From assembly GCA_009773495.1 (NCBI GenBank), contig WSXW01000003.1, positions 70,551-134,550 of the forward strand: a DNA stretch of 64,000 bases. Direction: 5' to 3'. Below, one piece after another: positions 8,546 to 54,659 of the stretch. The notes beneath the pieces are model-generated. The model saw nothing but the letters and a program-made list of their open reading frames with translations, had not been told where the DNA came from and did not search any database. The translations under genes and the position numbers were made by a program. Numbering within the stretch: the first letter of the stretch is position 1; each line of letters starts with the position of its first letter. The DNA comes from Bacillota bacterium. GTDB taxonomy: Bacteria > Bacillota > UBA994.

Positions 8546-8582
8546 AAAGACCGATAAGCAAACTGCTTACCGGTCTTTTAAA
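8546..8582 (+). terminator. rho-independent terminator after the MFS gene
   Basis: AAGACCGATAAGCA-aac-TGCTTACCGGTCTT hairpin followed by TTTTAAATT. Confidence 0.65.
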
Positions 8583-8881
8583 TTACCCCCACAATGCCGT
8601 TAACCCTTTGTTTTGAACCTGCTCTCTGCAGGTGGGTAACCGCACTATGTACCTCGCGAATCCGGCTTAGCGGCTGCCACTCAGTACATTGTTATTGGTT
8701 TCCCATTTTGTTGGTGTTAGGAACAAAACTCTCGGGCCTCACGCACATCGCAGGGCAAACTGCGTAATAAATCTGTTTCTTGGTTCTATCTTAGCACGCT
8801 TCATTGTCCACTCGCAACATGAAAATACTGTATCACTTGGCAATGTAGTATGAATAGACTGTAGCAGAGGGAGGTGAAAGC

Positions 8882-29233: not shown

Positions 29234-30133
29234 CTAGGTTCTTTTTGTATTCAAGCGCGCCTTGTTCTCGGCGTTTTTCCAGTCCACCCAGATCGAACTG
29301 GCAATAAAGATGGTGGAATAAACTCCAGCAATCAGACCAATCACAAGGGCAATGGCGAGAGGGCGCAGAGTAATCCCGCCAAAGATGAAAACTGAGCCGA
29401 CGACTAGTAAAGTACTGACCGAGGTGTTGATGGCACGAACAATGGATTCATTAACACTGCGATTGACCAGTTCCTCCATGTCAGCATGACGTTTAGCCTT
29501 GACGAGGTTTTCGCGAATGCGGTCAAATACAACCATAGTGTCGTTAACGGAGTATCCGACGATGGTAAGAATAGCTGCGATGAATTCGCTGTTAACCTCT
29601 ATTCTGAACAGCGCGAAGAAAATTATTACTACAAAAACGTCATGCAACAAGGCTATGACAGCCGCTACCGCAAATTTGTGCTCAAAGCGGATGGCAATGT
29701 AGATGAGCATACCAATCGAGGCCAAGATTAGAGCATAAATGGCGTTGCGCACCAATACGCCGCTGAACGTGGCATCGACTCGCGCGGTTGAAACAAGCTC
29801 AGCCTCCGGCCACTTCTCTTGCAACGATTCAAGAGCAGCATTAATACTTTCATTATCGATATTGGTGGTGCGGATTTCAACGCGGGTCCTCTGCCCACTG
29901 CCCTCGCGAATATCCCTGATCTGTAAACGCTCGATATGAGGCGAAACTGTCTGTTGAACTTCGCCAGTGGTGTAAACAGTCTTGAGGTCTACTTCAAGGA
30001 GCGAGCCACTCCGGAAGTCGACGCCGAAATTCAGCCCACGGAAAAGTAAAAGGCCTATACCAAAAACGATGAACACAACAGAGACATAGTAAAACTGCTT
30101 GCGCTTGCCAATAATATTCAAATTAAACTTCAC
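29234..30133 (-). CDS. secF: protein translocase subunit SecF
   Basis: 299 aa, SecF family TM pattern, adjacent to secD. Confidence 0.9.
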   Translation of the reverse strand: MKFNLNIIGKRKQFYYVSVVFIVFGIGLLLFRGLNFGVDFRSGSLLEVDLKTVYTTGEVQQTVSPHIERLQIRDIREGSGQRTRVEIRTTNIDNESINAALESLQEKWPEAELVSTARVDATFSGVLVRNAIYALILASIGMLIYIAIRFEHKFAVAAVIALLHDVFVVIIFFALFRIEVNSEFIAAILTIVGYSVNDTMVVFDRIRENLVKAKRHADMEELVNRSVNESIVRAINTSVSTLLVVGSVFIFGGITLRPLAIALVIGLIAGVYSTIFIASSIWVDWKNAENKARLNTKRT

Positions 30134-30146
30134 TTATGTCCCCTCC

Positions 30147-31382
30147 CTACATGCCCATAGACTTAGAGCTCTTGACGATATTGGCATTTATTACCAAATT
30201 CATGAGCAGCCGTGTCAGGTATACAGCAGTTAACATACTCACGCCGATACTGATGGCCAACGTTAGAGCGAAGCCCTTAACCGTACCGGTGCCAAACCAG
30301 TACAGAACAGCAGCGCCAACGACCGTAGTAATATTGGCATCCAAGACTGTCCACAGTGCCCGTTTAAAGCCGGCGCTAACAGAGACGCGCAAGGTACGGC
30401 CTGAGCCGAACTCTTCTTTAATACGCTCAAAGATAATGACATTAGCATCCACGGCCATACCTATCCCCAGGACAATACCGGCAATACCAGGTAGGGTTAA
30501 AGTGGCCTTGAGGAGAACCATAGACCACATTACGAGCAGAGCGTATCCAATGAGGGCAATATTAGCGACTAAGCCAAAACCACGATAAACTGCAAGCATA
30601 AACAATAGTACTAACACCGAACCGATTAGCCCGGCCACAACGCTCTTTTGCAGAGAAGTCTGACCCAAGGTGGGTCCGACTAACCGGAAATCGCGGGTCT
30701 CAAGCTTAACAGGTAGCGCACCAGAGCGGAGCATAATTGCCAGGTTTTTAGCTTCACTAAGAGAGGAGAGACCAGATATCTGCCCCTCAGCGCCAACTGC
30801 ATCCTGAATTTGCGGAACAGAGATGGGTTGTTCATCTAAAGCGATAACGAGATAACTATTGATATTAGCTTCGGTATGGGCACGCATAAGGCGGCCGCCC
30901 TCTTCGTCCAATTCTATTGACACGTAAGCCTGACCACGTTCGTCAAGTTTTTCACGCGCGTCTTTTAAATTCTTGCCTGTAAGAAAGGCTTTGCCCGGCA
31001 CAGCTTCTCCAGCCTCATTTATTATGAGACCGTGGAACGTAAGCTGCGCAGTTGTCCCAATGAGATCAACGACCTGCTGCACGTCCTCATAACCCGGTAG
31101 GGATACACGAATGCGGCGTGAACCTTCACGCACTATTTCAGGTTCAACAACGCCAAGCGCATTGACACGTTGACTAATGATTGCTACAGCCTGAGTCATC
31201 GCCTCTTCATCAATCTCGGGAACTTCAGCAGTCGGTACGGCCTCTAACACAACAGAGACACCGCCGCGGATGTCAAGGCCTAGAATAACCGAATCCTTGA
31301 TTGGCTGGTAGGAAAGGTATACCGCACCGCCCAGCAACGCGATAACTAGTAAAAAAATAAGAAAGTATATTTTGCTGTTCAA
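30147..31382 (-). CDS. secD: protein translocase subunit SecD
   Basis: 411 aa, SecD periplasmic and TM domains. Confidence 0.9.
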   Translation of the reverse strand: MNSKIYFLIFLLVIALLGGAVYLSYQPIKDSVILGLDIRGGVSVVLEAVPTAEVPEIDEEAMTQAVAIISQRVNALGVVEPEIVREGSRRIRVSLPGYEDVQQVVDLIGTTAQLTFHGLIINEAGEAVPGKAFLTGKNLKDAREKLDERGQAYVSIELDEEGGRLMRAHTEANINSYLVIALDEQPISVPQIQDAVGAEGQISGLSSLSEAKNLAIMLRSGALPVKLETRDFRLVGPTLGQTSLQKSVVAGLIGSVLVLLFMLAVYRGFGLVANIALIGYALLVMWSMVLLKATLTLPGIAGIVLGIGMAVDANVIIFERIKEEFGSGRTLRVSVSAGFKRALWTVLDANITTVVGAAVLYWFGTGTVKGFALTLAISIGVSMLTAVYLTRLLMNLVINANIVKSSKSMGM

Positions 31383-31574
31383 GTCTGTTTCCTCCTTAGC
31401 ATTTCTCTCTCTAAACCCTAACGCTAATTATAGCTCCTGACTGGTAAGTCAGTCAACGGATGGGCCTATAATGGAGCGGACAAGGTCCCTAGTCAAAAAT
31501 CATAAATCAAAGAGCAAAAACAGATCAGTCGTCCTGCCCTATTGATTTTTTGGTCTTTACTTTTTGTTTAGTTC

Positions 31575-32243
31575 TTACAAGAGCTTCGCTTCATTCATAA
31601 AAATCGAGAACTTGCTCTCTAATCGTTCCGCTGCCCGTCGACACATGACCATACGCGTTAAAAATATCTCAAAATAGTCCATAACCGGGCAAATGTTAGT
31701 GTCGATGCTTAATCTAAGTGTAATTATGCGCGACTCGGCATCTACTAACACTTCAGATTTGTTGACCGCGTAATTGACCCGATCATGAATATCAAAAGTG
31801 GCAAAGTCGCGGTTACGCACCCGAGAGCGATGCACGTCGGACTTATCGGCTATAATAAGGGCGGCAGCCACGTCATTGACGGATTGCCCATATTCTTCCT
31901 CGTGATTCCCGATGGCTGCGGACACAGTGGCAATATCTTCTAAAGACATGCCCATCTCCTCAAGTGTGTTCATAACTATGATTGCTGCGGTTTGACCATG
32001 GTTATGCCGACTGATAACGTTGCCGATGTCGTGAGTCCAACCTGCTATAGCCGCCAGTTCAGCCATACGCTCGGGGTAGTTGAGCTCCTTAAGGATACGG
32101 GCAGAGATAGTGGCGACAACACCAGCGTGTCTTAGGCCATGCTCCGTAAACCCCATGGCCGCTAGGTGCTTGTTGCCAAAGTCAAGATAGGTCTTGAGAC
32201 GAGGGTTCTGTTTTACCTCTACAAGAGTCGGTGTTTTTTCCAT
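31575..32243 (-). CDS. HD/HDIG-domain phosphohydrolase
   Basis: H...HD motif (LRHAGVVA...WTHDIGN). Its start overlaps the stop of the P-loop gene. Confidence 0.6.
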   Translation of the reverse strand: MEKTPTLVEVKQNPRLKTYLDFGNKHLAAMGFTEHGLRHAGVVATISARILKELNYPERMAELAAIAGWTHDIGNVISRHNHGQTAAIIVMNTLEEMGMSLEDIATVSAAIGNHEEEYGQSVNDVAAALIIADKSDVHRSRVRNRDFATFDIHDRVNYAVNKSEVLVDAESRIITLRLSIDTNICPVMDYFEIFLTRMVMCRRAAERLESKFSIFMNEAKLL

Positions 32244-32605
32244 TAATTAATCTCCTTTTGTGTGTACTGGGATAGGGCCTGTTCCGCTACAGCGAGCACC
32301 TGCTCTTTAGTGAGAGCATCAGTCAAGATCATGATATGAGCCGCTTCCCTTACCTCCGCGAGCAACTCCCATTGCTCGTCAAGGCGTTCCTGACCCCATG
32401 GGATGCGGCGGCGTTGCCGTGCGGTCTCTAGAGTACATCTCAAATAAATGATTACATCCGGGGTCAAACGTCGCCAAAATTTCTTCGAGACAGAATGCTC
32501 CTGGGGAATATTGACAGCATTATATCCTTTGTCGCGTAAGGCTGTAACCAGTGTACTTTTACCGGCAACACAATTACCTACGACGCCAATGCGGATATTT
32601 AGCAT
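32243..32605 (-). CDS. small P-loop NTPase (nucleotide-kinase-like)
   Basis: Walker A GNCVAGKST, 120 aa, translationally coupled on both sides. Confidence 0.55.
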   Translation of the reverse strand: MLNIRIGVVGNCVAGKSTLVTALRDKGYNAVNIPQEHSVSKKFWRRLTPDVIIYLRCTLETARQRRRIPWGQERLDEQWELLAEVREAAHIMILTDALTKEQVLAVAEQALSQYTQKEIN

Positions 32606-33303
32606 GGCACATCAATCGTCATCTTTCGTACTTTGATGTCTGGTTCATAGGTGTCTACGTAGATAACAAAAATGGCCATATCATCGGAAGGTCGCCTATC
32701 GTCTCTTCCAACTGCTTCTTGGAGCAGGAAATCAGCCAGATATTTGGGGTCATCCGCATGTTTGGCAATAAGCTCGGCAATCTCGCCATCCTGCCAAGGC
32801 TTCCCTCTGGAACGCCCGGCTGCCGAGATACCATCGGTCATGCCGACTATCGCCAGACCTTTTTCGATATTGAACTCAAAGACATTAGGTTTCATACTGC
32901 GGTGTACTCCAATGGGGTTGCTACCGGAGTCGAATGTTAATACGTTTCCGTCCTGCAGCACGTAGACTGGCGGGCCTCCGTTTTGGCTTATAACGATAGA
33001 CTGAGTTTCAAGATCTGCGGAGGCTATAACCAAAGTAGCTGAAACCCGCCCGTCGCGCAAAGCGTAGAGCATGTCGTGGACAGTGCGGGCTGCCGCGCCA
33101 TCACGAGCGCCTTCGGATATTAAACCGGCACACTTTGCGACCACCAGCTGACTGTTGGTGCGAGCTGACTTTCCGCTACCCTGTGCGTCCGCCAGCACAA
33201 TCGAGATGCCGCCTCGCGGGCGCTCAGTCACCTCAACAGAGTCTCCACTCTCAGATACGGAATATTTATTGGTTTTAGCGATTGCTGCTTTTATTTCAAG
33301 CAT
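32599..33303 (-). CDS. PP2C-type (SpoIIE/RsbU-like) Ser/Thr phosphatase domain protein
   Basis: GDSVEV...GGISIVLADAQGSGKSA...GMTDGI pattern of the PPM phosphatase family. Length is 234 aa. Confidence 0.6.
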   Translation of the reverse strand: MLEIKAAIAKTNKYSVSESGDSVEVTERPRGGISIVLADAQGSGKSARTNSQLVVAKCAGLISEGARDGAAARTVHDMLYALRDGRVSATLVIASADLETQSIVISQNGGPPVYVLQDGNVLTFDSGSNPIGVHRSMKPNVFEFNIEKGLAIVGMTDGISAAGRSRGKPWQDGEIAELIAKHADDPKYLADFLLQEAVGRDDRRPSDDMAIFVIYVDTYEPDIKVRKMTIDVPC

Positions 33304-33556
33304 GGCGGAGCCTCCTCTAGGACCGAATCAAAAATTATAAGGGGAACAGATAGGCCTTAGGCTTTAGGCTGCTAGGCGTTTGAAGGGGTAAAAGGTACAA
33401 GGTGTAATGAAGCTCTGAGGACTAACGTCCTCTACGAAGTACCAAGTACGAGGTATGACCATCCACCGTGTTCTGTGTACCGTGTTCTATGTACGCCGAA
33501 CTCCCAATGACCTTTCATTAGATTCCCCGTTAAAGGCCGGATTCCTGCCTGTCCAC

Positions 33557-34027
33557 CTAATAGCTTGTCCCAAGCCGTTTCGACCAAAACGCTCGTTCAA
33601 AGAGAATAGCCCGCGCCATGTGTGTTAGAGCTACATTTTTGGCTTGTGCAATTGATACGGAGATTCCGTTCTTAAGGAGCACCTCGCTGCCCACTTCACT
33701 CTTTTCGATACGTACAATAGCTTGAATCAGAAAGTAACCGTAGGCCGGGTCGCCCGGCACCTTCGGTGTGTGAACCTTTAATGGACCAAATGTCCTGTCA
33801 AGACAGAGGGGAAGCGGGGTCAAATGAGGGCGGCCAGAGACAAACTTAGCGGCATTAGATAAAGCCTTGCGGTCTAGAGCGAAGGACCTGCACGCCTGTC
33901 GGATCGCGGTAGGAAGAGTAATCGCAAGCACAACAGCCTCGTGCGGGTATATTACCCGTAATGCTAACCCTGTAGCCGAATACACCGGATAGAAAGCTAG
34001 AGCGGACATGAAATATACCTGTTTCAT
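33557..34027 (-). CDS. hypothetical protein
   Basis: 156-aa ORF with no recognisable motifs, flanked by repeat-rich intergenic regions. Confidence 0.35.
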   Translation of the reverse strand: MKQVYFMSALAFYPVYSATGLALRVIYPHEAVVLAITLPTAIRQACRSFALDRKALSNAAKFVSGRPHLTPLPLCLDRTFGPLKVHTPKVPGDPAYGYFLIQAIVRIEKSEVGSEVLLKNGISVSIAQAKNVALTHMARAILFERAFWSKRLGTSY

Positions 34028-34112
34028 TAAAATACCCCCCTTTACTTAAAAGACTACCATCCTTAAGTAACAGAGAGGTAACATGTATTCACTTAAAAGT
34101 AATACATAGGTA

Positions 34113-35165
34113 TTATACGAATGTGCACGGTGCTTGGGGGTTAAAAGTGTAACCTAGCCCTCTGCGAGTAACGATCCATTCTTGGCCGAGGGGTAGCCGG
34201 CTTCTCAAGCGCGACATCTGCGCTTTTAAACTCTTCTCTCCTAAATACAAATTTTGCCTACCGGTAACAGAAGTGTAAATCTGAGCAGGCGTATATATGC
34301 GACCGGGATTTGCAGCTAGATGACACAGAATACGGGTTTCCTGCGGGAATAACGGGAGTAACCTGCCCCGATAGCGTACTTCCATGGTATCGCGGTTAAT
34401 AGTTAGTTCTTCTGACTGAGTAGCAATCAATTTAAAAGCCAAACTAACAGCAGGGAGAGGGGTACGCTCGCCTGCCAGACCTAGTTTTCTCAAATCCCCT
34501 ACGGTTGGTCTAAGCCTAGCCACATGGTGTAGCTTGCCCTTGGATGCGGCGTCTAACACCACTTTGTAAACAGTATTGACGCTGCTCTCTCGGCATTGTA
34601 GTGCGCATGCTAAGTCACGGGTTAACTCTGGAGACCCCCTGCCCCAGGCATAGAGAGCGAGAGCGACATGATCATCGGGCTGACGCTTAAGTAGCGCGGC
34701 AACCTCGCCCCGACTAAAGAAACCGAGCTGTAAACGAGCGTCCTCCCAGTGACTCCGGGTGCCGATGACTATATAGGTCTGGGCCAACTGAGGTTCGAAA
34801 ACTCGCTCGCTATTAAATAACCTAAGCATCACCCTTAGCTCAGTTTGTCCCTCGAGGCTCAGGGAATCCGCACAGTCAATGAGCAGAACTGCTGGGCTGA
34901 GCTTCTTCAGTGCTATTAGCAAAGAGCTATGGGAGTAAGTCTGGGGCGTTAGATTCAGGCGTGCTGCCAAATGTTCAAAAAGATTGATATCGGGCATAGC
35001 TGCGTTAACATAATAGATACCACCAGGGGGCTCCGTTGTAAGCCCGCTTCCGATTTGAGAGAGGAATAAAGTTAGTCCGGCACGGGGTGTAGATTCGACA
35101 ATGAGGCTGCCTTCATCTTTAAGAATTTGTATGGCTCTGCTTAAAGCCTCTCGCTCAATTCGCAC
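34113..35165 (-). CDS. transcriptional regulator with a C-terminal OmpR/PhoB-type winged-helix domain and an unassigned N-terminal domain
   Basis: C-terminus ETRILCHLAANPGRIYTPAQIY...LKAQMSRLRSRL...VTRRGLGYTF matches the trans_reg_C pattern. The N-terminal ~240 aa is neither a canonical receiver domain nor has a Walker A. Confidence 0.55.
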   Translation of the reverse strand: MRIEREALSRAIQILKDEGSLIVESTPRAGLTLFLSQIGSGLTTEPPGGIYYVNAAMPDINLFEHLAARLNLTPQTYSHSSLLIALKKLSPAVLLIDCADSLSLEGQTELRVMLRLFNSERVFEPQLAQTYIVIGTRSHWEDARLQLGFFSRGEVAALLKRQPDDHVALALYAWGRGSPELTRDLACALQCRESSVNTVYKVVLDAASKGKLHHVARLRPTVGDLRKLGLAGERTPLPAVSLAFKLIATQSEELTINRDTMEVRYRGRLLPLFPQETRILCHLAANPGRIYTPAQIYTSVTGRQNLYLGEKSLKAQMSRLRSRLPLGQEWIVTRRGLGYTFNPQAPCTFV

Positions 35166-38150: not shown

Positions 38151-38282
38151 CATTGCTTTCGGGCACCCATGGTTGACCAAGGGTCCTCTGTGTACTGTGT
38201 ACCATGTTCTGTGTACGGTCTACAGGGAGCCAGCGGCTAGGTGCCCCCATTCGCTATGCGCTATGTGCACGTTTCTTCTCGC

Positions 38283-39041
38283 CTACAGCACCTCTATCAA
38301 CCTAAACATCACATAAACCACTGCAGGAGGAACAGTCACCAGCAATAGACCACGCTTAGCTAAGTCAAAACCTCTAAAGGCATGGACCAGGTGATAGATA
38401 GTAAGTAATGCCCATGAGCCTAGTGAGATTAGATTTAAGAAGGGAATACCGTCGCGAACACCCACTACTAAGGCCATCGAGGCCAGTGGGACGACGAAGG
38501 AGAGAATTTCTATAATGTTGTTCTTGAATTCTAACCCTTCCTTAGCAACAGATAATCTGCGCAGCACAAGCGGTGCCGTCAACAACGCAATGATGGTTTC
38601 GGGGCCCATGTACGTGATGTTGTAAAGGAGTGAATATGCATATACGCTCTGCCCGGGTCCAGCGTATTCGCCAAAGAACACCACGCCGGCGAGGAAGTGC
38701 ATAAAGAAACGCGATAAGCCGCCAATCGTTATTCCTGCTAGCGGTTTTTCTTTAAAGAACCCTGCCAAGCCAACAGTAGCGAAGGCCAGTGGGTAGTCTA
38801 AAAGAGCCTGCACAGGATGAACAATATATGGGTCGACCATCATTTTAATCCCACTGAAGAGGAGCCCAGCCACTAACCCCGGAACCCCACCCCAACGTAG
38901 AGCCACAACGAAGAGTGGTAGCATCTGCAGTGACACAGACCCGCCTTGGGGCATTTCGCCCACGCGGAAGAGACTGAGCAGGTAGGCAAAGGCCACCATC
39001 ACCGCAATCTCTACCATCATCAGTGTTTTCTTGTTTCTCAC
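38283..39041 (-). CDS. ThiT/ECF-S-like thiamine (precursor) transporter
   Basis: 6-TM small transporter directly downstream of a TPP riboswitch. GTG start, with AGGAGGG 7 nt upstream. The first 26 codons of the listed ORF are read from the riboswitch terminator. Confidence 0.55.
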   Translation of the reverse strand: MRNKKTLMMVEIAVMVAFAYLLSLFRVGEMPQGGSVSLQMLPLFVVALRWGGVPGLVAGLLFSGIKMMVDPYIVHPVQALLDYPLAFATVGLAGFFKEKPLAGITIGGLSRFFMHFLAGVVFFGEYAGPGQSVYAYSLLYNITYMGPETIIALLTAPLVLRRLSVAKEGLEFKNNIIEILSFVVPLASMALVVGVRDGIPFLNLISLGSWALLTIYHLVHAFRGFDLAKRGLLLVTVPPAVVYVMFRLIEVL

Positions 39042-39084
39042 CAGAAGCCCTCCTTTATTCAGCAATGCCGCGGGAGTTAACCGA

Positions 39085-39216
39085 CAAATCAAAGTGCCCA
39101 TGCTAGGAAACATGGGCACAAATTATTGTGCTTAAGCTTCCCTACGCTGGTCTTAACCAGATCAGGTTCAAAGGGTCAGGGACATAGCTCCCTATCTCAG
39201 CCCAGCGGGCCCCCCT
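39085..39216 (-). promoter_or_regulatory. TPP (THI-box) riboswitch with a terminator expression platform
   Basis: Minus strand reads GGGGGGCCCGCUGGGCUGAGAUAGGGAGCUAUGUCCCUGACCCUUUGAACCUGAUCUGGUUAAGACCAGCGUAGGGAAGC. This matches the TPP aptamer consensus (CUGAGA ... ACCCUUUGAACCUGAUCUGGUUAAUACCAGCGUAGGGAA). It is followed by a GUGCCCAUG...CAUGGGCAC hairpin and a U-run. Confidence 0.85.
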
Positions 39217-39352
39217 AGCAACAATATGCTGTTACTATATAGTTTATCATGGAAAGTGAGAAGTGCAAGAGTGTAAATTGAGCAACGGTACCTCGTACAT
39301 CGTACTTAGCACCTCGTAGAATAACGAAATACGATGTACGAAGTACGACTTA

Positions 39353-43404: not shown

Positions 43405-44718
43405 TTACTTGTCGAAAACAACCTGTCCGTGTACTTCTGTCTCAAGTGCTCTCAGCGCTCTACGCACCAGCTTACGACGAAGTTCCTTCTCTTCACCAGC
43501 GGTAAGGAGAGGATTGCCCAGCGGGTACGGAATAGCTACAGTTGGAATAATGCGGTTAGCACCAACTGTGAGCGAAATCGGCACAACCGTGCACATATGA
43601 GCAACAGGTAGTCCAGCGCGTTCAATTTCCTTTACCATCGTTGCACCGCAACGTGTACAGGTGCCTCAGGTACTGGTAAGAATTACTGCTTGGACGCCAT
43701 CGTTAATAAGTTCTTGTGCGAACTTCTTCGCGAAAGCTACAGAGTTGTTAACGGAAGTACCATTACCAACTGTTGTGTAAAAATAACGATGCAATTCGCC
43801 AATCTCCCCGGCTTGCTCCATCTCGCGGAGGACATCCACCGGTAGAACACGGTCAGCGTCTTGATTAGCATATGTGGGGTCATACCCACCGTGAGCGGTA
43901 GCGTAAGTGTCTGAAGTCAAATCGGTCACACCGGCGATATCGTACTTACCGTACTTGCTAGCGCTAGATGACTCGATATGGTCCGGGTTACCCTTAGGCA
44001 CAATACCACCGGAGGTAACGAGAGCAATCTTAGCCTTGGCAGCGCATGCAATAGGCTGGTTGGGAGCAACGCGGTCGAAATGTGGCATGGCGTATTCTGT
44101 GGTGAAAGGCTGCCCATTGATTTTGGCGATGAGCATATCTACGGCACGTTTCGAACCACGCTCGGTGTGGAAGTAATTCTGGCGAATGCCGCGAGCCATG
44201 TAGCCATGAGTCTCTGGACTTACTTCTTCACCCTGCCCGAGAGCTACAACCACCTTAATGATAGCTGGAACGGCTTTGCGCATATCTGCGGCGCTGTTAC
44301 TGGTCTGTACGATATATGCGAACTTACGATACATATCCACACCTGGGTTTTCAGGGTACATGCCGGTGACTACAGGGATCGCAAGTTCTTCTGTAATCGC
44401 TTTAGCTACAGCACCGCAAGCAACACCGTAACGCCCTGCGTTAAAAGCTGGGCCAGCGATGACAACATCAGGCTGATGTTTCTTAATCATCCCGATGACA
44501 GTGGACAAGGCTTCATCTAGGTTTTCGTTGAAATAGCTGTCACCGCAGATTACAGTGGCTACGATTTCGCCTGCATTTCCTAGAGCGGCCTGGAGAGCTT
44601 GACCGGGGCCTACAACACCTGCACGTTCTTCGGGACGATAGTCAGCCTTGTCTTCGCCGCCAATGCCGCCGTAGAACTGGTTCAGGTAATGTACAACCCT
44701 AATTTTCTGGTTGCTCAT
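43405..44718 (-). CDS. grdB: glycine/sarcosine/betaine reductase selenoprotein B (contains in-frame UGA=Sec at 43666-43668)
   Basis: ORFs 43666..44718 and 43405..43638 share one frame and are joined through TGA. The junction reads ...U-G-T-C-T-R-C-G-A-T-MVKEIERAG. A CGUUGC-ggu-GCAACG hairpin lies about 15 nt after the UGA. Confidence 0.8.
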
Positions 44719-48324: not shown

Positions 48325-48545
48325 AAAGGCCACTCTCCTTCTGTAGTTTATATGAGCAGAGCGACAAGCGCTCGGCACAAGTGAGGGAACGGGCAGTGAG
48401 CATTGAGCAGGAGTTAGGCTTGAGGCTTTAGGCGTTAGAAGTACGGCAAGCGCCTTCCACGATCCACACGTCTGAACTATCCGTGTTCTGTGTACGCCGT
48501 TCCACAAGGAACAAGGAATGCCTCATGTGCTATGTGCCGCCCCGC

Positions 48546-49209: not shown

Positions 49210-49415
49210 AAAAAAATGAACGGCAAAGCATGCCGCCCAATTCTCTGTCCTGAAATACCTGAGAGATTCCGCGGCCCTCCGCTTGCTCCTTCGGTGCCAT
49301 AACTGGCTTTCCAGAGTGCTGTCAGCAGTGCGGTCCTTTTGCCTGAGAGTTTATGCTGCCTTTGGCGAAAGGTCAGATTGCTCCTTCGGCGCCCCAGTAG
49401 GGGTCTCTCCCGCTA
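49210..49415 (-). promoter_or_regulatory. tandem glycine riboswitch (two aptamers) with a terminator, leader of the grd operon
   Basis: Aptamer 1 on the minus strand reads GGGAGAGACCCCUACUGGGGCGCCGAAGGAGCAAUCUGACC...CUCUCAGGCAAAAGGACCG. Aptamer 2 reads CUCUGGAAAGCC...GGCACCGAAGGAGCAAGCGGAGGGCC...CUCUCAGGUAUUUCAG. Both have the GGAGAG / ACCGAAGGNGCAA / CUCAGG cores. They are followed by a GGGCGGCA-ugcuu-UGCCGUUC hairpin, a U7 run and then the ATG. Confidence 0.85.
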
Positions 49416-49589
49416 GCTTCTTCCAGCTAGTATGTTGTTCTTACCTAGAGAATATCATGCTTAAGACAAGCCTGCAAGGCAAATTTAGACTATGGGGCAG
49501 GAATAGACCTCGCTGCGGTAGAATAGTGTACTAGACTGAGCACATCGACAAAAATCTGGATATTTATTGTGAAAGGGGTAGTGATCACG

Positions 49590-54563: not shown

Positions 54564-54659
54564 TGGCGGGAGTATGTGGGAATCGAACCCACCGCGGACT
54601 GAGTCTAGCCCGCTGCCGGATTTGAAGTCCGGAAGGCACACCAGAACCTATCTACTCCC
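54564..54659 (-). tRNA. selC: tRNA-Sec (anticodon UCA)
   Basis: Minus strand reads GGGAGUAGAUAGGUUCUGGUGUGCCUUCCGGACUUCAAAUCCGGCAGCGGGCUAGACUCAGUCCGCGGUGGGUUCGAUUCCCACAUACUCCCGCCA. It has an anticodon loop CUUCAAA, a long variable arm, a GGGUUCGAUUCCC T-arm and an encoded CCA. It lies immediately downstream of selB. Confidence 0.85.

Follow-up and report, generated by a model that had tools for sequence, protein, structure and literature searches.

The window, by which we mean the whole 64,000-nucleotide stretch of DNA analysed here, carries on its minus strand a run of genes for a winged-helix regulator, an orphan protein, a PP2C phosphatase, a small P-loop protein and an HD protein, followed by secD and secF (Table 1). 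The five open reading frames upstream of secD lie at the coordinates given in a preliminary description of this DNA, and its domain calls, as well as the tight coupling of three of the genes, could all be reproduced: the PP2C and P-loop genes overlap by 7 nt (ATGCTAA, within CCATGCTAA) and the P-loop and HD genes by 1 nt (TAATG). Comparison with related loci shows that the block is a composite of three layers, namely the PP2C–P-loop pair, an HD–secDF part and a lineage-specific pair of genes upstream.

Table 1. Features of the locus, in window positions.
Feature	Position	Strand	Length	Remarks
secF	29234-30133	minus		Sec_GG and SecD_SecF_C (Pfam); synteny shown
secD	30147-31382	minus		SecD_1st, SecDF_P1_head and SecD_SecF_C (Pfam, identical gene in locus L001)
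HD–secD intergenic region	31383-31574	minus	192 nt	Candidate sigma-70-like site; AAGGAGG ribosome-binding site
HD gene	31575-32243	minus	222 aa	
P-loop gene	32243-32605	minus	120 aa	
PP2C gene	32599-33303	minus	234 aa	
Intergenic leader upstream of PP2C	33304-33556	minus	253 nt	14-nt repeat; TATAAT box; GGAGG ribosome-binding site
Orphan gene	33557-34027	minus	156 aa	
wHTH regulator gene	34113-35165	minus	350 aa	

A conserved pair of PP2C and P-loop genes

The PP2C protein matches the SpoIIE model of Pfam (PF07228) over almost its entire length (85.3 bits against a cutoff of 25, E 6.7e-24, profile positions 2-191 of 192). Its closest solved structure is PDB 3pu9, with an end-to-end alignment over aa 4-233 (E 9.4e-51), and the SpoIIE structures 5mqh, 3t91 and 5ucg are matched at E of about 1e-12. 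D21, D39, D157 and D207/D208 are invariant across 78 family members, and in the alignment with the SpoIIE chain of 5mqh, D21, D39, D157 and D208 fall on the Asp of the SGD, SDG, SDGI and DDM motifs. Against SpoIIE proper (TIGR02865) it scores 77.2 bits, with a cutoff of 490.8, and matches the C-terminal phosphatase domain only (profile positions 550-761). We thus predict a stand-alone, catalytically active member of the SpoIIE family, with no regulatory domain of its own. The 3pu9 protein, which we take to be from Sphaerobacter thermophilus, belongs to the same subfamily of stand-alone SpoIIE-type PP2Cs of about 235 aa; its record ('Protein serine/threonine phosphatase') describes no function, partner or context, and our literature search returned no relevant functional paper on 3PU9.

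The P-loop protein combines a GxxxxGK[ST] Walker A motif (GNCVAGKST) with a kinase-type parallel sheet in a confident structure model. Its closest structural neighbours are small-molecule kinases, which measure 150-210 aa against its 120, and strands 2 and 3 do not enclose a substrate-binding (NMP-binding/SB) subdomain. Searches of Pfam and NCBIfam gave only sub-threshold matches (dNK, RapZ_N, AAA_17): dNK (PF01712) scored 22.7 bits against 27 and covered aa 39-65 alone, dTMP kinase (TIGR00041) 17.4 against 83.25, and RapZ 18.3 against 244 (NF003828) and 16.9 against 25.4 (PF03668). The C-terminal RNA-binding domain of RapZ is absent, and the likeness to that protein is one of fold only. Invariant in the family are the Walker A motif, including a family-specific Cys (G-x-C-x-x-G-K-S/T), the QEHS motif, W44 and R65, with R66 nearly so. 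The protein is a minimal NMP-kinase-fold domain that serves as founding marker for an unnamed family, which comprises 337 clusters at 50% sequence identity from at least 294 species, mostly Chloroflexota/Anaerolineae with some Bacillota.

We analysed 80 loci of this family, the best-scoring of at least 294, which are dominated by Anaerolineales and whose counts are not phylogenetically independent. A stand-alone, catalytically intact PP2C gene lies just upstream of the P-loop gene, on the same strand, at 78 of the 79 loci from other species where this could be tested; most of these are MAGs of Chloroflexota and some are MAGs of Bacillota. The two genes form a widely conserved cassette. The 7-nt overlap recurs in two relatives of the window locus (L095 and L096), and even the P-loop member that diverges most (37% identity) has a 235-aa PP2C as its immediate neighbour, at a locus without secDF. 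Downstream of the P-loop gene, secD-secF was found at 60 of 69 testable loci; the remaining nine include that of the cultured Leptolinea tardivitalis. Half of the loci (40/80) carry a TrkA_N/TrkA_C gene of 350 aa between the pair, with overlapping stops and starts, and three independent contigs from one Anaerolineae-type lineage show, in the usual PP2C–TrkA context, a fusion of the P-loop domain with GAF and HD-GYP domains.

The gene order, the translational coupling (which suggests a stoichiometry of about 1:1) and the lack of a regulatory domain in the PP2C would fit a non-catalytic P-loop protein that binds ATP/ADP or GTP and tunes the phosphatase allosterically, much as RsbT and RsbQ act on RsbU and RsbP, or like the kinase-like domain of RapZ, with no transfer of phosphate. 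We consider such a nucleotide-sensing adaptor rather unlikely: the invariant QEHS and R65 and the nearly invariant R66, by their inferred mapping to an acceptor site and LID, suggest that chemistry has been kept, and with a TrkA gene between the two at half of the loci, strict co-translational assembly is harder to argue for.

The HD protein and its secDF surroundings

The HD protein matches PF01966 above its cutoff (26.8 bits against 22) and carries an HDIGN motif as well as the six-ligand H/HD/H/H/D set typical of binuclear phosphodiesterases; by these features it is a predicted phosphohydrolase of a Clostridial secDF-associated family. This family is large and highly conserved in Clostridia, where the gene stands directly 5' of secD, usually downstream of (queA-)tgt-yajC and without a PP2C–P-loop pair. 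The preliminary description had proposed a hydrolase of nucleotide second messengers; no specific profile and no close structural match was found to phosphodiesterases of the HD-GYP, PgpH or SpoT/Mesh1 type, and we reject c-di-AMP, ppGpp and c-di-GMP as assigned substrates, as the protein bears specific similarity to none of the corresponding hydrolases.

The HD-secD-secF part of the window corresponds to the Clostridial queA-tgt-yajC-(HD)-secD-secF cluster, with 62% identity between the HD protein and its Calderihabitans counterpart. The genes queA, tgt and yajC themselves are absent from the 64-kb window (tblastn with Calderihabitans QueA, TGT and YajC), and the regulator and orphan genes stand in their place. 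Five Bacillota MAGs (L010-L014) preserve the whole cluster with the PP2C–P-loop pair inserted between yajC and HD, in the order queA-tgt-yajC-(x)-PP2C-Ploop-HD-secD-secF, and to that extent the three coupled genes do form part of a conserved housekeeping operon in related genomes. They are nevertheless not one conserved unit, because HD rarely follows the P-loop gene (5/80 loci) and lives without the pair in Clostridia; of the stoichiometric triad proposed earlier, only PP2C and P-loop consistently co-occur, and the HD gene became translationally coupled to their cassette in the lineage of the window. Between HD and secD, the best candidate for a sigma-70-like site by consensus match is TTGACT-18-TATAAT (31456-31427, 11 of 12 positions), and no terminator-like site was found after the HD gene in this region. 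We count this promoter-like candidate ahead of secD among the points against the switch proposed below. A literature search on a link between secDF, yajC and HD returned nothing relevant.

Since HD is clearly able to occur apart from the pair, and since the queA-tgt-yajC-secDF region of Clostridia gathers diverse unrelated genes (DUF3792, SCIFF with its maturase, ABC_ATPase, 5-FTHF cyclo-ligase), one might see here nothing but unrelated housekeeping genes held upstream of secDF by operon inertia. For the PP2C–P-loop pair this is improbable, as the pairing extends across two phyla, is found also where secDF is missing and comes with conserved start/stop overlaps. Small P-loop, HD and phosphatase proteins are also known in combination from defence islands, and a mobile or anti-phage cassette was considered as well. 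PADLOC returned only two marginal HD-motif matches (E 0.005-0.009), GC content is flat over the region, the context is one of housekeeping genes, and the identity of SecD drops as phylogenetic distance grows, a pattern that gives no hint of recent transfer of the block; a defence system is effectively refuted by this context.

Under a further reading, the alternative raised in the preliminary description, the genes would serve small-molecule nucleotide turnover: the P-loop protein would be a kinase of nucleosides, nucleotides or metabolites, an HD-type phosphohydrolase would break down that nucleotide or one related to it, and the PP2C would be accessory. It draws on the weak dNK, dTMP-kinase and AAA_17 matches over the β3/LID segment, the small-molecule kinases among the best structural neighbours, the 1-nt overlap of the P-loop and HD genes in the window, the metal-ligand set of the HD protein and the P-loop–GAF–HD-GYP fusion. 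We hold it to be a minority possibility, given that all the small-molecule kinases listed possess an NMP/substrate-binding lobe that is absent from the P-loop protein, that HD is so loosely associated with this protein, that the HD protein of the window is not a member of the HD-GYP subfamily to which the fused domain belongs, and that the P-loop protein has a protein phosphatase as its near-obligate partner.

Lineage-specific genes and leader upstream

Upstream of the cassette stand two lineage-specific putative DNA-binding proteins, the regulator with its winged helix and the 156-aa orphan. The C-terminus of the regulator matches Trans_reg_C (Pfam, aa 270-341, 44.8 bits against 26.2, E 1.3e-11), and wHTH matches in the PDB confirm an OmpR/PhoB-type winged helix at aa 250-342. 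Over aa 1-240, Pfam gave no Response_reg match at E<=10 and at best AAA_22 at E 0.077, in agreement with the earlier statement that this part is neither a receiver nor a recognisable ATPase; a 13-sequence profile searched against the PDB likewise gave no significant match for the N-terminus, the C-terminal wHTH alone being matched. Response-regulator matches cover the C-terminus only, a receiver with a phospho-acceptor Asp was not found, and the names 'response regulator' and 'HssR' given to the family in source records derive from the C-terminal domain alone, so that the annotation of this protein as a 'response regulator' should be corrected to one without a receiver domain. Motifs taken from the family alignment suggest that the N-terminal domain may be a degenerate P-loop, with a Walker-A-like 'PRAGLTLFLSQ' that lacks the Lys and a Walker-B-like 'LLIDxAE'. 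The regulator is atypical, as had been noted, yet restricted to one narrow lineage (15 clusters, all about 350 aa).

The orphan has no match of its own in Pfam or NCBIfam. Its homologues, 54-64% identical, occupy the same place between regulator and PP2C in three relatives (L095-L097), where the regulator gene is in every case 5' of orphan, PP2C and P-loop, and both upstream genes are stably linked to the pair. Three of four orphan homologues match ComK of Pfam weakly (best E 0.027), and the orphan is possibly a remote ComK-like protein; we do not assign it as ComK, since these weak matches are all that Pfam offers and an hhalign comparison with B. subtilis ComK was not significant.

The leader between orphan and PP2C, previously called repeat-laden, holds one tandem 14-nt direct repeat (ACA[T/C]AGAACACGGT, 33465-33492) besides short AGCCTAA-type repeats, for which that term is too strong. 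Motif matches number 5 in the window, where 0.6 would be expected. The tandem repeat is missing in L096 and L097 and takes another form in L095, which leaves it a local candidate site and speaks against a conserved operator. In relatives (L096 and L097) the leader itself is not preserved, the gap there being only ~50-80 nt, and a riboswitch or other structured RNA was rejected, with no Rfam match there and no significant fold (z 0.52).

A putative phospho-switch and its relation to known systems

We tentatively interpret the PP2C–P-loop pair, with a confidence just short of even, as a reversible-phosphorylation or nucleotide-dependent switch tied to membrane housekeeping. The P-loop protein would be a protein kinase, or an ATP-dependent partner of the PP2C, and the signal would be reversed or carried out by the phosphatase. 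We infer a kinase activity from the fold of the P-loop protein and from conserved residues that it retains, namely the Lys of Walker A, the acidic/polar QEHS loop that follows strand 2 and a pair of arginines in the LID; because the lobe for small substrates is missing, a macromolecule is its probable substrate or partner. To our knowledge, among the relatives of this fold, RapZ-N and Fap7-like proteins do not act as protein kinases. The genes that persistently accompany the pair, secDF and, in Anaerolineae, one for a TrkA/RCK membrane protein, suggest that its target is a housekeeping function of the membrane or of secretion; secDF may, however, stand next to the pair through an operon structure inherited in growth-related gene clusters, and not for functional reasons.

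Bacterial PP2C phosphatases are known to counter Hanks or GHKL kinases. In its most far-reaching form, which we regard as quite unlikely, our interpretation would make of the pair a novel phospho-switch in which a P-loop protein kinase, neither Hanks nor GHKL, opposes a SpoIIE-type phosphatase and tunes PMF- or ion-coupled membrane machinery (SecDF-assisted export and, in Anaerolineae, the RCK/TrkA membrane protein), with a nucleotide signal brought in by the secDF-linked HD protein and, in one lineage, by the fused GAF/HD-GYP domains. As far as we know, the cytoplasmic regulation of SecDF is essentially unexplored.

The preliminary description could name no known pathway, and neither can we: no curated P-loop family, defence-system match or publication was found, including in searches for the PP2C–P-loop pair, for SpoIIE/RsbU in Chloroflexi and for SpoIIE with secDF. 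The pairing of a PP2C with a kinase-fold P-loop protein in so many Chloroflexota and Bacillota species thus represents an unnamed and apparently undescribed system, and a reasonable target for biochemistry.

Among minimal relatives of the P-loop nucleotide-kinase fold, shikimate kinase, gluconokinase, CoaE, the RapZ N-domain and PDRP are 30-90 residues longer than the P-loop protein, which has no substrate-binding lobe and whose family is further marked off from them by the invariant Walker A Cys and the QEHS motif. On the phosphatase side, the closest analogy is with the partner-switching PP2Cs SpoIIE, RsbU, RsbP and RsbX, with which the PP2C of the window has its catalytic domain family and metal-binding Asp residues in common; RsbX, too, stands alone as a PP2C and shares an operon with the kinase that it opposes. 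The analogy is incomplete, because the conserved neighbourhood of the pair contains no Hanks kinase and neither a STAS protein nor a GHKL kinase, the latter two as judged from gene lists read singly (window lineage, Anaerolineae and divergent loci). Whereas partner-switching systems use a GHKL kinase and a STAS substrate, the PP2C described here pairs with a P-loop protein of kinase fold.

Layout of the locus

All genes of the locus lie on the minus strand and are listed below in order of transcription, followed by the other features of the window. The observation made in the preliminary description was confirmed: its domain calls were reproduced with Pfam and NCBIfam, and the gene overlaps stand at 7 nt (ATGCTAA, PP2C/P-loop) and 1 nt (TAATG, P-loop/HD). 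Several MAGs of uncultured Bacillota, and metagenomes as well, carry the identical locus. The best promoter-like site of the region, of sigma-70 type, lies between the HD gene and secD (11/12 matches); no terminator-like site was found 3' of the HD gene in the region scanned. Use of selenocysteine by the organism follows from two features elsewhere in the window, a gene for tRNA-Sec and an element of the SECIS_4 family.

Features of the locus and of the surrounding window
Feature	Position	Strand	Remark
Regulator, 350 aa	34113-35165	minus	first in transcription order
Orphan, 156 aa	33557-34027	minus	after regulator
Gap, 253 nt		minus	between orphan and PP2C
Motif ACA[C/T]AGAACACGGT, 14 nt	33465-33492	minus	exact tandem pair upstream of PP2C
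PP2C, 234 aa	32599-33303	minus	
P-loop protein, 120 aa	32243-32605	minus	
HD protein, 222 aa	31575-32243	minus	
Gap, 192 nt		minus	between HD and secD
secD	30147-31382	minus	
secF	29234-30133	minus	
RlmM-like methyltransferase gene		minus	3' of secF
Near-copy of 14-nt motif	38201-38214	minus	elsewhere in window
Near-copy of 14-nt motif	48480-48493	minus	elsewhere in window
Near-copy of 14-nt motif	34323-34336	plus	elsewhere in window
6S RNA gene	8582-8759	minus	above Rfam gathering score
Thia_YuaJ-type thiamine transporter ORF	38283-39119	minus	
TPP riboswitch	39122-39226	minus	78.8 bits; directly upstream of transporter ORF
SECIS_4 element	43628-43665	minus	
Glycine riboswitch	49321-49422	minus	above Rfam gathering score
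tRNA-Sec gene	54568-54659	minus	

The PP2C and P-loop gene pair

The PP2C, P-loop and HD genes had been taken as one stoichiometric module, a reading that comparison across genomes does not support. Scanning a single genome for each species yielded at least 294 carriers of the P-loop gene, and synteny was counted in their 80 best loci. In 78 of the 79 testable loci the P-loop gene has a PP2C homologous to that of the window upstream of it on its own strand, whereas an HD homologue follows it in only 5 of the 80. The earlier interpretation holds in part; the true unit is a two-gene cassette of a PP2C and a mini-kinase, which are near-obligate genomic partners. Even the most divergent P-loop member checked (37% identity), in a locus without secDF, adjoins a 235-aa PP2C.

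The commonest neighbours of the pair are membrane proteins. secD-secF lies downstream of the P-loop gene in 60 of 69 loci, and in half of the loci (L027:4923-5987, in an Anaerolineae comparison locus, and 39 other Anaerolineae loci) a gene for a TrkA_N/TrkA_C (RCK) membrane protein of ~350 aa is inserted between PP2C and P-loop genes, its start and stop codons overlapping those of its neighbours; no K+ selectivity-filter motif was noticed in this protein when its sequence was read by eye. In about a quarter of loci, also from Anaerolineae (L027:6336-7808 and 21 others), an M1-type peptidase gene separates the P-loop gene from secD; the L027 product is a zinc peptidase of 490 aa with an HExxH motif and a signal-like N-terminus.

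Carriers are mainly Anaerolineales and other Chloroflexota, including the cultured Leptolinea tardivitalis, with some Bacillota MAGs. An exhaustive profile search of 1.84 billion representatives places the P-loop family at 337 clusters (50% identity, E<=1e-10), almost all of 100-160 aa. The window's member reaches the cutoff of no Pfam or NCBIfam family, and its 69 close homologues are nearly all unnamed or 'hypothetical', a few carrying automatic kinase labels. Among longer members, two (P0245 and P0271) have a common homologous C-terminal extension of ~220 aa without a Pfam match; others, fused to transketolase or beta-helix domains, may be gene-calling artefacts.

Neighbouring HD, regulator and orphan genes

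The HD protein scores above the Pfam HD cutoff and bears an HDIGN motif. Its invariant residues (H39, HD71-72, H82, H114, D133) would fit a binuclear site, and its model (pLDDT 86.9) shows an additional C-terminal alpha/beta lobe. Homologues form >8000 clusters at 60-65% identity across Clostridia, and the gene is a secDF-associated housekeeping gene: the cultured Calderihabitans maritimus and Phosphitispora fastidiosa have the order queA-tgt-yajC-HD-secD-secF-...-recJ, a cluster in which both the PP2C and the P-loop gene are missing, and a Thermosediminibacterales contig has HD immediately 5' of secD. In Fonticella (L098:2771-4327) it lies 3' of tgt-yajC-DUF3792-SCIFF and a radical-SAM maturase. 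Five Bacillota MAGs (L010-L014) carry the cassette within the classical housekeeping cluster, as queA-tgt-yajC-PP2C-Ploop-HD-secD-secF, L010 with a 5-FTHF cyclo-ligase-like gene between yajC and PP2C; within the 64-kb window, queA, tgt and yajC are absent. Small conserved Clostridial genes seem to have a hotspot upstream of secDF.

The regulator, with Trans_reg_C at its C-terminus, is a local addition to the cassette, its family comprising 15 clusters only. Pfam and NCBIfam scans bore out that its N-terminus holds no receiver domain, despite the public-record names 'response regulator transcription factor' or 'HssR'. Judged from its conserved motifs, 'PRAGLTLFLSQ' (Walker-A-like, with Lys replaced by Leu) and 'LLIDxAE' (Walker-B-like), this domain looks like a P-loop NTPase lacking the Walker lysine; the one supporting match is AAA_22 (E 0.077), and profile comparison with the PDB gave none. 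The orphan, conserved in the window's lineage, reaches no Pfam or NCBIfam cutoff; three of four orphan homologues weakly match ComK (Pfam; best E 0.027). Three relatives at 47-57% identity (L095, L096, L097) keep the order regulator-orphan-PP2C-Ploop-(HD)-secDF, also where upstream flanks differ, so that regulator and orphan are lineage-specific yet linked; L096, from the window's lineage, has PP2C-Ploop-secD without HD. With 5 matches in the window where 0.6 would be expected, the 14-nt motif is over-represented there; it is a possible binding site of the adjoining winged-helix protein. Its tandem repeat is not conserved in related loci, and the 253-nt leader shows no significant fold.

Possible activities of the pair

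Both partners keep catalytic-type residues. The PP2C has a SpoIIE/PP2C domain (E 6.7e-24) and aligns over its full length with PDB 3pu9, an unpublished structural-genomics phosphatase (E 9.4e-51), SpoIIE domains in the PDB reaching about 1e-12; SpoIIE proper was rejected on NCBIfam comparison. Across 78 sequences the metal-binding aspartates are invariant and G-x-R-D-G forms a subfamily motif. The P-loop family has G-x-C-x-x-G-K-S/T, QEHS, W44 and R65 as invariants and keeps D50, R66 and W70 in >=90% of sequences. The AlphaFold2 model (pLDDT 88.9) has a four-stranded sheet with strands 2-3 joined via one short helix, and lacks the phosphoryl-acceptor-binding lobe of small-molecule kinases.

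The pair could form a phospho-switch or nucleotide-dependent switch, in which the P-loop protein would act on or with a macromolecule. A second reading, in which it is a nucleotide or metabolite kinase and the HD protein degrades the same or a related nucleotide, is kept alive by a genuine P-loop::GAF::HD-GYP fusion on three JGI metagenome contigs (L092:5001-6467, L093, L094), in the usual PP2C-TrkA context: its 488 aa comprise the mini P-loop (aa 2-118), GAF (151-285) and an HD-GYP-type HD_5 (304-472), a connection between the P-loop domain and nucleotide signalling of the HD type that hints at a role in such signalling. A defence cassette was rejected, PADLOC returning no defence signature, and we found no literature on the cassette.

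By its position after strand 2, QEHS probably occupies the site of the Mg/acceptor aspartates of shikimate kinase, and the same positional mapping would put R65/R66 in a LID-like segment. Kinase/phosphatase-type pairs are known as a kind; what is new here is the unusual, unnamed P-loop partner.
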